A stretch of 19,127 bases of DNA from a virus: the UHGV virus genome UHGV-0215688, one strand, 5' to 3'. Each line of letters opens with the position of its first letter. The stretch's first letter is position 1. The translations under genes were made by a program, and so were the position numbers. Below the pieces are notes generated by a model. It saw only the letters and a program-made list of their open reading frames with translations. It searched no databases and had not been told where the DNA came from. Shown in pieces: positions 1 to 11,358 of this stretch.

Positions 1-116
1 CATAACCTGAATCTGAGGCAGCACCTGGCACGGCTGGGACGGAAGTCGCTGTCGTTCTCAAAATCGGTGGAGCTGCATGACAAAGTCATCGGGCATTATC
101 TGAACATAAAACACTA

Positions 117-566
117 TCAATAAGTTGGAGTCATTACCCAGAATTCTATGCTAACGCTCCATGAAGGATCATTTATCAAATGGAATGATAGAGGTGTCGA
201 GCCATGTATAAATGCCAAATTCGCAATCCAAGTCCTTATGCTAAAAACATAATCACCTGGCACATACCCCCCATTATGGCTATTTACACAGTAAATTATT
301 ACCATTATCGCTGATGATATGAAGGTAAGAGGCCACAGCCTCGCCAGTCTATTCAAGAAATATGACGGGATAGACGCCCCATTTCTTACAGAATGGGTAA
401 GCACAAATCCCGAAATGATGAAAAAATATGCAACAGCCAAGTGAGGGCCACTAAATGGCCCGTCATTTTTCCAACCAGTAACAGCATTGATGGCGTGATT
501 TAAAAGCACTACGCAAGCAAAAAGGCCGCGCAAACCATCAACAGCATAGAAGCGTTTAATTTCCAT
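117..566 (-). pseudogene. Acyltransferase family 3 (O-antigen/LPS acyltransferase-like), N-terminal fragment, truncated at 149 aa
   Basis: Translation carries the N-terminal hallmarks of acyltransferase-3 membrane enzymes: RFYAVDGLRGLFACVVLLNH, FFIISGFVL, NRLARLWPL, WSVSIEF. Full-length members are about 330+ aa; here the frame stops at 117 and all three minus frames hit stops shortly after. ATG at 564-566 has no Shine-Dalgarno. Gene is visibly AT-rich against the GC-rich phage backbone. Confidence 0.5.
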
Positions 567-590
567 AACAATTTATTTAAAAAAAGAAAA

Positions 591-596
591 ATTATA
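591..596 (-). promoter_or_regulatory. Candidate -10 hexamer (TATAAT on minus strand) upstream of the acyltransferase fragment
   Basis: Plus-strand attata at 591-596 is a perfect TATAAT on the minus strand, 24 nt upstream of the ATG at 566. No convincing -35 was found. Confidence 0.25.
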
Positions 597-685
597 CTAG
601 AAATATATCATCAACATCTATGCCATTGATGATTAAGTGATGATTGTCACATTTTTATGTTTCTGGCTAGATTGCTGTCAGCGCT

Positions 686-853
686 TTACGCGTTTGACTC
701 AGGTTCGGTGAACGCTCCCTCTTCATAAATCCATCCGATTCCACATGGAATTCCGTCTATTTTAACAACCTTAAAATCATCAAAAATATGACCTTCACCA
801 TCCCATATAACAACATTAACAACTATTCCATCTGTAATTAATGCATATCTCAT
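686..853 (-). CDS. Small hypothetical protein (55 aa) translationally coupled to the tail fibre gene
   Basis: ORF track gives 686..874. The ATG at 851-853 overlaps the fibre TGA stop (ATGA) and has GGAGG 7 nt upstream, so the likely product starts [22 protein letters not shown]. Visibly AT-rich compared with the fibre gene. Confidence 0.5.
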
Positions 854-1776
854 GCAAATTCCTCCACAAGACAAATACCATCAGCACCTTCACCACCATA
901 AAAACGCGTGGAGAAGACCTGCGTGTCATATGCGCCAGCGCCGCCGCCGCCAGGGACTAATGCTTTCGCAATTATCGGTGAAGATACAGTACACTGCCCC
1001 GCTCTTCGGCTGCCACCCCAAAAGCTTGAACCGCCGTACCCATTAAGGAATCTGGTATTACTTTGGCCATCTCCGCCATCTCCGCCGGCTAGATTTACAT
1101 CACCACCAGACCCGGCAACTCCAACGCCGCCTGATGCATATACAGTGGAAGCAGTGGACGGGTTTCCGCCTGTGGCAACCATCCCGCTAAATGTTGAGTT
1201 ACCGCCTTTTGTTGCCTCAGTGCCGCCGGCACCGATAACCACGGCAAAGTTTGTGATATCAGCCACGTTGAACCATTTGATACCTGTAGCGCCTGCAGCC
1301 CCCCCCGCACCGGAAAAGTTATCGGTTGGGGCACCACTATTAAAAGCGCCACCTCCGCCACCACCTCCTCCCGTTAGAGTTACTTTGATGCGCTTCGTCA
1401 GCGGGTTTAGCGTTACTGTTTTTGATGAGGTGATCCACTGCTCGGCAATCTTCCTACCTACGTATCCGTTGGTATCTCCCAAATCAAGGTTTGCGAGAGC
1501 CGTTTTCACCGTGCCATCCGATTTGATATCGCCAAACGGATTCTTGCGGCTTAACAGCAGAGCACGAAGCGCGGTAAGCAACTGGTCGTGCCGCGCCTTC
1601 TCCAGACTGGCACCAGATGCCTCAACAACGCTACAAAGTTCTTCCTGCAACATGTCAAAGTAGTCATCATCCAGATCGGTGGCAGGCGTGCCAGTCTGGG
1701 GGTTACCACGGGTAAAACCGTTCTTACCCGCGCCGAACTTATCCTTCTGCGCGGTTTTCGTGTCTATACGATGCAT
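850..1776 (-). CDS. Tail fibre protein with conserved N-terminal domain and glycine-rich C-terminal region
   Basis: 308 aa, last gene of the tail operon directly after the gp48-like gene. N-terminus [58 protein letters not shown] resembles side-tail-fibre N-termini of Mu/e14-type prophages, as recalled. C-terminal half is Gly-rich with an octa-glycine run. GGAG RBS 6 nt upstream of the ATG. Confidence 0.75.
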
Positions 1777-6869: not shown

Positions 6870-7307
6870 ATGGAAATGTTTTTGCCGTTAATACTGGGTT
6901 TGTTGCTAGCCGTTTTCATAGGACGGTGGGCTTATAAAAAAGAAAAGACCAAGCCCAGAAAAATAATGGCTGCTCTTCTCGGTGCTGTTTTTGGATTCTT
7001 CGCACCACTGATAATCGCAGCGTTTGTTATGACTCCCCCAGAAAAAGAAAAAACTAAAGAGGAGCTTGTTATGGCAAAGCTCACACGCTCTTTGGATGGT
7101 TGTCCACTTGATATGAAAGATCGCGTGAAAGAATCAATGAATGATCCCGATAGTTTTGAATGTATCGAAACTAACGTTATACGTCGTAAAGATGATTACG
7201 TCATGATCATGCAGTTCCGTGGCAAAAACCAATTAGGGGGAATGGTTAAAAATGTCGCCAAGGCGGAATATGACTCAGAGGGAAATTTCGCAAGGTTCAT
7301 CAATTAA
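6870..7307 (+). CDS. Moron: 145-aa two-helix membrane protein with a roughly 90-aa C-terminal soluble domain (candidate superinfection exclusion protein)
   Basis: Only convincing plus-strand gene in the window. Strong RBS AAGGAGAGG 5 nt before the ATG. Two hydrophobic helices (about residues 3-19 and 33-54) separated by a Lys-rich loop YKKEKTKPRK, followed by a domain with two Cys. Strongly AT-rich against neighbours; hairpin immediately after the stop. Confidence 0.75.
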   Translation: MEMFLPLILGLLLAVFIGRWAYKKEKTKPRKIMAALLGAVFGFFAPLIIAAFVMTPPEKEKTKEELVMAKLTRSLDGCPLDMKDRVKESMNDPDSFECIETNVIRRKDDYVMIMQFRGKNQLGGMVKNVAKAEYDSEGNFARFIN

Positions 7308-9862: not shown

Positions 9863-11358
9863 TATGCAGACTCCTCTGAATACTGAAGACGGAACTGGTT
9901 AACCACGGCAAAGACACGCAACTGGTTAACATAGTCAGGCGGGAACAGCGTGTTCAGGCGGTTCGGATCACTGGCATCACGCTCCACAACCAGGTACTGC
10001 TTAAACAGTTCGTAGTTTTCCACGATCCCCGCACGCTCAAGCTGACGGTAGGTTGCCAGCAGTTCCCCTTTGATCACCGCCGGGGTGACAATCGCCTGAC
10101 CTGGACCAAAGCGGGTACCGTCGCTGGCAAGCTTGTGACGCCCGTACTTACTGGTAATGACGGATTTCAGTTTGCGCAGCACATACGCGCTGGTATGCAG
10201 CGTCTCGCTGTCGAGGTAGCTGTTATCCGCAACACCGTAAGCGTTTTTCCTGTACGTGGTGACATCACGCTGAATGCGCAGCACCCCGCTTTCGACATAC
10301 GCCGTTGCCACGCCATGAGACAGCAGGGTCTGTTGCTCGGTCATCGTGAACCGTTTCCCCTTCGGCGCAGGCAGCATACCCACCAGCTCACCGGTCTGCG
10401 TGGGACGTGCCGGATCGTTGCGAATAAACACCGCTGCGCGGGCGGTACGGCTTGCCGCCAGTTCGTCGGCAGGCGTCTGGGTCTCTTTTTCGTACCCCGC
10501 CAGGGTAATGTGCTGCTGGTTAAACTGGTCACCTGCGGTCACCAGTTCTGACAGCGTGCCGATCTTTGCCGTATACACATGACCATACAGCTGACGCGCA
10601 TAGCTCCAGCGACCGCTGGTATCGTTCATCTCGGTCACCAGCGTGTTAACGGAGGCCGTGTCGTTGAACGGCAGGCCGATATAATCAAACGGCTCATCCG
10701 CCATTGCAGCGACCGCGCCGGTGAGAACCGGAGCGCCCGCTCCGGAGGTACCCGTCGCCACGGCAATCTGTACGCCCGCAGGCAGCACTTCGCCCCCACC
10801 GAAGCCGTAGTAATTGAGGCTGACAGGAATTTCATTCCCGCAAAGCCCCTTATGACGCGCGGTCAGTGTGACCACGCCTGCCGAAGATGAGGCCGTAAAC
10901 GGCAGGGCCGGAACGGCATTGATGGCATCCTGAATACTGCTGGCAATCGTCGTGACGTTATCGCCGTTGGTCACCGGTGCCTGCACGCGGGTACGTCCCA
11001 CATAAACATTCACCGTGCCGGTTTCGGTTGCTGCTCCGGTCACCGTCAGCGTAACCGTTGCCGCCGCGCCTGTGGCTTCCGGAACGGCAATCACATACAG
11101 CTCGCCAAACGGGTCGGTCTGGCGATAAGCCTCGACCATACGCGCCAGCTGACTTCCCGCACCACAAATCTGGCGTGCATAGTCTGCCGACGGCATCAGC
11201 ACCAGACTGTTGGCAACAATCTCTGCACCGTTATTGGCGTGACCAATCAGCAACGACGCTCCGCTGTCCTGTGCAGTATTAGCCGCCTGGTTATCCATTT
11301 CCGCATAAAACAGCGGAACCAGCGTATTCGACGGAATGGTGTTAAAGCTTATCGTCAT
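9862..11358 (-). CDS. Contractile tail sheath protein (Mu gpL-like)
   Basis: 498 aa, first large tail gene after the neck genes and followed by the tube gene; AAGGTGA RBS upstream of ATG at 11356-11358. Confidence 0.85.
   Translation of the reverse strand: MTISFNTIPSNTLVPLFYAEMDNQAANTAQDSGASLLIGHANNGAEIVANSLVLMPSADYARQICGAGSQLARMVEAYRQTDPFGELYVIAVPEATGAAATVTLTVTGAATETGTVNVYVGRTRVQAPVTNGDNVTTIASSIQDAINAVPALPFTASSSAGVVTLTARHKGLCGNEIPVSLNYYGFGGGEVLPAGVQIAVATGTSGAGAPVLTGAVAAMADEPFDYIGLPFNDTASVNTLVTEMNDTSGRWSYARQLYGHVYTAKIGTLSELVTAGDQFNQQHITLAGYEKETQTPADELAASRTARAAVFIRNDPARPTQTGELVGMLPAPKGKRFTMTEQQTLLSHGVATAYVESGVLRIQRDVTTYRKNAYGVADNSYLDSETLHTSAYVLRKLKSVITSKYGRHKLASDGTRFGPGQAIVTPAVIKGELLATYRQLERAGIVENYELFKQYLVVERDASDPNRLNTLFPPDYVNQLRVFAVVNQFRLQYSEESA

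Follow-up and report, generated by a model that had tools for sequence, protein, structure and literature searches.

A small gene overlapping a prophage tail fibre gene encodes a predicted stand-alone relative of the N-terminal domain of Tfa-type fibre assembly chaperones

The stretch of DNA analysed here (the window, 19,127 nt, virus genome UHGV-0215688) is an SfV/e14-like myovirus prophage of E. coli, which, on the minus strand, extends from the terminase region as far as the tail tip. The last genes are, in order, those of a baseplate J protein (Pfam Baseplate_J), a YmfQ/Mu gp48 protein and a 308-aa fibre, followed by a 55-codon ORF (the small ORF), a spacer and an Acyl_transf_3 gene. The features of this terminal region are listed in Table 1.

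Table 1. Features of the distal end of the prophage tail operon
Feature	Position	Strand	Description
IS1 end interrupting the acyltransferase gene	1..136		Context only; homology to the uninterrupted locus begins at 137
Acyl_transf_3 gene, 5' part	137..566	minus	Pfam PF01757, E 6.8e-14; truncated by IS1; third cassette gene
Spacer, small ORF to acyltransferase gene	567..685		119 bp, GC 27.7%; conserved with the Enterobacter locus L089; part of the cassette
Small ORF, 55 aa	686..853 (stop included)	minus	Predicted stand-alone homologue of the N-terminal beta-sandwich fibre-binding domain of Tfa-type chaperones
ATGA stop/start overlap, fibre gene and small ORF	850..853	minus	Junction of the translational-coupling type; read directly
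GGAGG Shine-Dalgarno-like motif	861..865	minus	7 nt 5' of the ATG, within the last codons of the fibre gene
Distal fibre, residues ~108-308	850..1454	minus	TNF-like and glycine-rich tip of the Pam3 gp24 type; presumed client; part of the cassette
Proximal fibre, residues ~1-107	1455..1776	minus	StfP/SfV orf21-like baseplate-docking region; prophage backbone

Reading the sequence directly places the ATG of the small ORF at 853-851 and its TAA at 688-686. The fibre ORF that precedes it (850-1776, minus strand, 308 aa) ends in ...GAGGAATTTGCATGA; its last codons are GAG GAA TTT GCA TGA and the A of the stop completes the ATGA with the start of the small ORF. The 55-aa ORF and its overlap with the fibre stop had been pointed out in a preliminary description, the coordinates and translation of which proved exact, and the GGAGG ribosome-binding site proposed there is indeed present, at 865-861. 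An alternative TTG start at 874 would give a 62-aa product; every homologue begins at the MRYAL position instead. A scan for promoters and terminators around the small ORF revealed nothing above shuffled expectation in the spacer.

The same description had remarked on the AT-richness of the small ORF relative to the fibre gene, and the values bear it out: 36.3% versus 53.7% for GC and 23% versus 48.5% for GC3, the baseplate genes being at 57-58% GC. The origin of this difference became apparent from comparison with other prophages. Positions 137-1454 of the window are 90% identical in DNA sequence (blastn) to a segment of Enterobacter prophages that have different baseplate genes (L089 4400-5717). 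The shared block contains fibre residues ~108-308, the small ORF, the spacer and the acyltransferase gene, and its breakpoint coincides with the end of stfP homology and with a fall in GC3 from 58% to 44% inside the fibre gene. Because the 90%-identical block, the breakpoint and the GC3 drop coincide, we regard the AT-richness of the small ORF as the mark of a horizontally exchanged host-range cassette. On the other side of the breakpoint, the proximal fibre DNA is 94-97% identical to the 5' ends of stfP in ~1,850 E. coli genomes and in phages SfV, SfI, SfII and SfIV, a match that stops near window 1453-1475; this proximal part also gives a weak match to residues 41-146 of Mu fibre S.

Of 5,426 complete E. 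coli genomes, just 2 combine the distal fibre with the small ORF; their annotation lists the ORF as a hypothetical protein and gives the fibre as an incomplete pseudogene. For that fibre gene RefSeq (PGAP) calls only the first 303 nt (L001, L002 6915-7217), with the mention 'incomplete, missing C-terminus'. The fibre ORF is in fact intact and, with its 308 aa, has the size and architecture of Pam3 gp24 and AH07 gp23; the pseudogene flag is probably a mis-annotation resulting from comparison with the longer StfP proteins.

The third gene of the cassette is a probable lysogenic-conversion surface-polysaccharide acyltransferase. Intact copies of 356 aa are found in Enterobacter and in E. coli CUWW06 and 14EC033; here IS1 leaves only the first ~143 codons (cut at 136/137), so that conversion by this prophage copy has probably been lost. 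The IS1 end itself (1-136) matches copies in 4,963 of the 5,426 E. coli genomes. As a Pam3-like tip recognises LPS in a Klebsiella phage (PMC12671077), the pairing of such a tip with a surface-polysaccharide acyltransferase would make biological sense. Insertion sequences were seen at two other loci of this type. At L090, an IS (Transposase_mut) is inserted between the small ORF and the acyltransferase gene; in Klebsiella Kp4865-2 (L006 4199-5540), the 60-aa counterpart of the small ORF is followed by IS1-like sequence, by a truncated opposite-strand Tfa C-domain and by an ORF for an invertase of the Hin/Gin type. IS1 thus stands beside this type of cassette in two unrelated prophages, that of the window and that of Kp4865-2.

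Judged from sequence conservation, the small ORF is a conserved gene, far beyond what a chance ORF would be. Near-identical 55-aa proteins (E 1e-24 to 1e-27) and close homologues of the same length (78-87% identity) occur in Enterobacter and E. coli. An exhaustive HMMER search of 1.84 billion cluster representatives with the family profile gave 8,487 matches at E<=1e-3, 1,442 of them at E<=1e-10, and among the 150 matches listed the module starts within the first ten residues in nearly all. When the best 141 new matches were sorted by length, 78 were of 80 aa or less, 19 of 81-115 aa, 40 of 116-160 aa and 4 were longer; in the many 127-160-aa proteins retrieved by the profile, the module corresponds to residues 1-65. 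A profile search of a word-indexed database returned 138 proteins, nearly all of 51-75 aa; wherever the source supplies a name it is 'hypothetical protein', save for one partial 'phage tail protein'. Searching phages by tblastn with a typical 61-aa member added nothing to the Pseudomonas jumbo phages found earlier. Four residues, A4, V11, N13 and G40, are invariant or nearly so throughout the family.

The family is by and large without annotation. No model of Pfam, NCBIfam or PADLOC matched the small ORF (Pfam and PADLOC at E<=1). The small ORF does match phrog_14370, whose function is not annotated (E 1.2e-7, ORF residues 3-54 against profile positions 5-60 of 63). This phrog and a set of uncharacterised 59-165-aa BFVD proteins of uncultured Caudovirales belong to the same family as the small ORF; they carry no functional annotation, and the links to Tfa N-domains and Gly_rich_2 tips presented below are not recorded there.

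Conservation in related prophages was one of the points on which the preliminary description had made its proposal depend: the ORF is kept in Enterobacter and E. coli, and the pN/pS ratio is 0.27 in the 59-aa clade. It is 0.32 in the 88-aa clade and 0.14 for the N-domain of the fused proteins described below. For the clade of the window itself, comparison with the three closest relatives gave dN/dS values of 0.30, 0.56 and 1.16, each calculated from only 13-16 differences. Two proteins, P0143 (123 aa) and P0174 (110 aa), contain the module twice, in tandem within one polypeptide, which suggests another route to multivalency without a trimerisation domain.

The nature of the module was revealed by its longer relatives. 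A tblastn search of phage genomes aligned the small ORF to the N-terminus (residues ~1-58) of proteins annotated as tail fibre assembly proteins. Goslar gp089 (138 aa) shows 43% identity to it (E 6e-7); the N-termini of Pantoea phage AH07 gp24 (140 aa) and of Pseudomonas phage Peetri_00116 (185 aa, deposited as 'tail fiber protein') were similarly matched. Pfam detects Caudo_TAP from about residue 32-36 onwards in Goslar gp089 and AH07 gp24, and DUF4376 from residue 65 in Peetri_00116; in view of where these domains start, the small ORF corresponds to the part that lies ahead of them. A profile of 19 such fused relatives matches Mu Tfa (gpU, 5yvq_B; E 6e-14), and because it does we consider the fused relatives to be genuine Tfa proteins. 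Those with Caudo_TAP or DUF4376 are 130-185 aa long. Other C-terminal extensions also exist, i.e. a helical tail of ~30 residues in a class of 88-101 aa, and several that belong to no Pfam family.

Links to solved structures were less readily obtained from sequence. Phmmer found no match for the small ORF among the sequences of solved structures; the family profile gave E 1.3 against the chaperone Pam3 gp25, which is not significant on its own, and the profile of the fused class, which reaches Mu gpU, does not reach Pam3 gp25. The C-terminal domain of the fused proteins has no counterpart here: an HMM of the C-domain (15 fused relatives) found none in the six frames of the 19-kb window, with positive controls at E 1e-20 to 1e-29, and the spacer (567..685) holds no remnant of it in any frame.

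The AlphaFold2 model of the small ORF, made from a 95-sequence alignment, has a pLDDT of 91.7 and predicts an all-beta soluble domain with strands at residues 2-7, 10-16, 28-31, 42-44 and 47-49 and no helix. A Foldseek comparison of the model with 350,542 PDB chains, a check put forward in the preliminary description, gave a single match, the Pam3 gp25 chain, with a query-normalised TM of 0.58: the sole hit is thus a fibre chaperone, but at an E value of 0.88 it is not significant alone. Fifty-two model residues superpose on gp25 at 2.2 A. In a library of viral models, the fold matches 138 proteins (best TM 0.65-0.81), nearly all 'uncharacterized' and of 59-165 aa, with a few named tail (fibre) assembly chaperones.

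Pam3 gp25 (PDB 7YPX; Wei et al., Viruses 2022, PMC9608196) is a 162-aa protein with two domains. The first, made up of residues 1-55, is a beta-sandwich of 2+3 strands, which grips the flank of the junction where, in one gp24 subunit, the TNF-like domain meets the glycine-rich one. The interface buries ~550 A2, mainly through beta2 and alpha1, and its small size is considered favourable to release. The second domain, residues 64-162, is helical; it trimerises and caps the distal loops (PMC9608196). The small ORF matches the first of these domains in size and predicted fold and ends where the gp25 linker begins; it differs in that the C-terminal four-helix trimerising domain is absent from it and has no separate gene in the 19-kb window. 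The presumed client is of the same type, the window fibre tip being likewise TNF-like plus glycine-rich, as in gp24. The invariant V11 and N13 fall in predicted strand 2 of the model, which by analogy would be the equivalent of the interface strand beta2 of gp25.

By its sequence and its predicted fold, the product of the small ORF is a homologue of the Tfa N-domain that stands alone. It shares with the Tfa/Caudo_TAP proteins (PF02413; Mu gpU, lambda Tfa, P2 gpG; North et al. 2019; PDB 5YVQ) an N-terminal domain of the fibre-binding beta-sandwich type and a position immediately downstream of, and co-oriented with, a fibre gene; the Caudo_TAP domain that defines the C-terminus of those proteins is missing. 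Since both this C-domain and the trimerising helical domain of the gp25 type are absent, the small ORF should not be filed as a Tfa. The earlier proposal of a 'minimal fibre chaperone' stands to the extent that homology, predicted fold and synteny all support it, but the protein corresponds to one domain of the classical chaperone and not to a separate, smaller kind. The Tfa literature terms the N-domain non-conserved and the C-domain conserved. The opposite is true here: for glycine-rich tips the N-module is the constant element, and its partner is Caudo_TAP, DUF4376, an unnamed extension or nothing. In the part of the literature that our search covered, we found no description of Tfa proteins consisting of the N-domain only.

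The fibre gene gave a second line of evidence. Residues 120-304 of the fibre match Pfam Gly_rich_2 (E 1.2e-8), and a profile of nine tips, that of the window included, matches Pam3 gp24 (7yfw/7ypx_A; E 4e-12) over gp24 residues 77-275, terminal hydrophobic motif included. The association of such tips with the module was determined on 80 IMG/VR loci encoding relatives (10-sequence alignment), in which the gene abutting the module was scored with an HMM of seven known tips. The HMM matched the neighbour gene in 77 loci; in one more, L009, the tip is broken over several frames, and 2 are true exceptions, so that the module comes directly after a Gly_rich_2-type fibre tip in 78 of the 80 viral loci. 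The distance to the upstream gene was -4, -1 or 0 nt in 54 loci and +4 to +9 nt in 24: a tight junction is a trait of the whole family. An acyltransferase lay within the fetched flanks in only 4 loci, which, set against 78 for the tip, makes the glycine-rich tip the constant partner of the module.

The co-occurrence downstream of fibre genes that the preliminary description had suggested looking for extends to all the named phages examined. In Klebsiella Kp4865-2, a 573-aa Gly_rich_2 fibre is followed by a 60-aa ORF, again through an ATGA overlap. The module comes directly after a Gly_rich_2 fibre in Goslar, Pantoea AH07 and Microbacterium WilliamStrong, and after a Gly-rich fibre, the tip being judged from its sequence, in Pseudomonas Peetri. 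In Edwardsiella eiAU, gp07 (Gly_rich_2) precedes an unannotated 60-aa ORF. The tips of Arthrobacter Ingrid, where the module again follows directly, and of Wanchaivirus PDP110P2 (a 308-aa tip protein followed by a 65-aa ORF) were recognised with the in-house tip HMM. The pairing of tip and module holds across myoviruses, siphoviruses and jumbo phages, with hosts from Enterobacteria to Actinobacteria.

All the Gly_rich_2 fibres examined (window 850-880; L003-L088) share a conserved C-terminal motif, in which some four hydrophobic residues precede E/Y and an aromatic residue, the Pam3 version being GIIIVQYF, and in many loci this motif coincides with the overlap at the start codon of the module. 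The 60-aa member that follows gp07 is not annotated in the deposited genomes of eiAU and eiAU-183 (L007 3501-3683; record 10177-10359). The IMG/VR locus closest to the window, L009 (2279-3004), has a module 80% identical to the small ORF and a Gly-rich fibre split over several frames, whether through decay of the prophage or through an error of assembly.

Conservation is higher in the module than in the tips. A Mantel test on 30 representative loci lent no support to co-divergence of the two (Spearman -0.06), a value to be read with the reservation that global identity may be a poor measure for low-complexity tips. The absence of co-divergence fits binding to a conserved stem rather than to hypervariable distal loops.

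Stand-alone forms raise the question of whether the small ORF is a gene in its own right or debris. A vestigial remnant would be a full-length Tfa that has lost its C-domain by recombination, deletion or nonsense mutation, is no longer needed or working, and survives as a short ORF in a young cassette. Short and long forms are indeed interleaved in a neighbour-joining tree of the module, and one of the short ones, P0017 (65 aa), differs hardly at all from the first 64 residues of a 130-aa protein; at its locus, L093, the short ORF stops at an in-frame TAA beyond which a C-domain remnant lies. The dN/dS range in the clade of the window (0.30-1.16), the IS1 that adjoins the cassette, the frameshifted fibre of L009 and the rarity of the module in complete E. 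coli genomes could be read in the same way. Against this, more than half of the top family representatives (the 78 of 141 with at most 80 aa) are stand-alone, and the window, the Enterobacter loci and 39 stand-alone viral loci are all free of a same-strand C-domain remnant. The 55-aa length, the ATGA overlap and the ribosome-binding site are kept in E. coli and Enterobacter on different prophage backbones, isolated phages (eiAU, 60 aa; Wanchaivirus, 65 aa) carry stand-alone forms, and the better-sampled short clades are under purifying selection, as seen from the pN/pS values given above. A remnant is therefore an unlikely explanation, and we concluded that the C-domain is lost repeatedly, giving rise to short forms, many of which are maintained.

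The C-domain HMM also led us to reject, for the window and for 31 of the 39 stand-alone loci, the idea of a split Tfa whose C-domain has its own gene close by. In the remaining eight, all P2-like, the C-domain is on the opposite strand, beside an invertase gene in the Kp4865-2 locus (L006), and probably belongs to the alternative fibre of an invertible segment. An oddity was encountered in a prophage of Enterobacter kobei (L093 4001-4477), where the TAA of the 65-aa ORF is followed, without change of frame, by 93 codons of a Tfa C-domain remnant; the arrangement resembles a recombination joint linking two different Tfa genes. Further downstream are a Caudo_TAP fragment on the opposite strand, a Gp53-like_C tip fragment and an invertase gene, which indicate an invertible fibre segment.

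From the above, the small ORF probably specifies a minimal holdase for the glycine-rich tip of a fibre that trimerises by itself. Homology, fold, synteny and the absence of the C-domain were computed here; what is said below on binding, chaperoning, stoichiometry and release is transposed from the Pam3 and Mu structures. The small ORF would be translated in step with the fibre, by virtue of the ATGA overlap and of its own GGAGG. One small protein would bind each nascent tip at the flank of the TNF-like/Gly-rich junction and, as a holdase, would shield the aggregation-prone glycine-rich loops until they are stacked. Since the small ORF is without the helical trimerisation domain of the classical Tfa, the fibre would have to bring its own three chains into register, presumably through its proximal part; in Pam3, the N-terminal helical domain of the fibre can trimerise without the chaperone (PMC9608196). 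The small protein would then dissociate, which the small size of the interface would favour.

The last of these steps is where another reading departs, according to which the protein is retained on the virion tip as an accessory or cap; until the host is contacted it would shield the tip or modulate receptor binding, whether in place of assisting folding or in addition to it. Mu Tfa has been reported bound to the mature fibre, possibly in contact with LPS, and chaperones of Alteromonas phages have been proposed as transient caps (PMC10579305). The geometry of gp25 further suggests that, with no trimeric C-domain over the distal loops, a lateral 6-kDa domain need not block the receptor-binding tip. 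Retention nevertheless seems improbable to us: gp25 was not detected in Pam3 virions (PMC9608196), its beta-sandwich interface is of the small kind thought to favour release, and the module, besides being more conserved than the tips, shows no co-divergence with them. This last observation also argues against a role as specificity determinant, and together with the absence of gp25 from virions it leaves the accessory receptor-binding factor considered in the preliminary description disfavoured.

The notion of an independent moron at the operon end, or of a partner of the acyltransferase (a lysogenic-conversion, exclusion or membrane accessory protein), is very hard to maintain: the small ORF is AT-rich like the acyltransferase gene, travels with it in one cassette and sits at the end of both operon and prophage, but it has no defence or other family match, its sequence and fold match a chaperone domain modelled as all-beta and soluble, and its constant neighbour is the tip. 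As for the partnership taken separately, it was rejected on the count of 4 loci out of 80.

Small proteins encoded beside a fibre gene which assist or complete the tip are known elsewhere, namely gp38 of T4, gp38 of T2 and S16, and PtsHN10N of C. difficile, the latter raising the solubility of the receptor-binding protein without co-purifying with it (PMC9615553). We detected no homology of the small ORF to any of them. The polyglycine domain of S16 and T2 forms part of gp38 itself. Here it is the fibre that has the Gly-rich domain, and the small protein is predicted to be a plain beta-sandwich; the glycine-rich repeats of the gp38 type (T2, T6, S16) are absent from it.

That a small gene placed after a fibre gene encodes its chaperone is, as a general rule, not new. 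What is new is the identity established at the level of the domain, the strict tie to one type of tip, the size of an unannotated family and the dispensability of the domain called conserved. A family which consists of the N-domain only and keeps to one type of tip suggests that a holdase, and not an external trimerisation scaffold, is what glycine-rich tips need. A candidate function is thereby available for a family of thousands that has no Pfam or NCBIfam model. The gene is easily missed, being hypothetical or unannotated, as in the eiAU record, next to a client fibre that RefSeq flags as a pseudogene. For the engineering of phages or tailocins, swapping a Pam3- or gp38-like tip probably requires that the 55-65-aa gene behind the tip be moved as well. 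It also appears that a receptor-recognition cassette made of a tip, a putative chaperone and a probable surface-polysaccharide acyltransferase moves between prophage backbones of different genera.

One may go further and suppose that the beta-sandwich of ~55 residues is the minimal autonomous chaperoning unit for glycine-rich (Pam3 gp24/gp38-like) tips, Caudo_TAP being an option often gained or lost, and that the stand-alone form might remain laterally attached to the mature fibre, as part of the virion, and tune adsorption. This is a speculative extension, to which we attach a low probability; if the minimal-unit reading were true, it would overturn the view that the C-domain carries the key conserved function of Tfa, and thousands of phage mini-genes now without annotation would receive a function.

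A last observation concerns another part of the window. The only sizeable plus-strand ORF within the minus-strand tail module, at 6870-7307 (145 aa), lies between the DNA-circularisation and tape-measure genes. It is a possible moron; in CUWW06 it is annotated as a hypothetical protein, and in 14EC033 an IS1 is present there.
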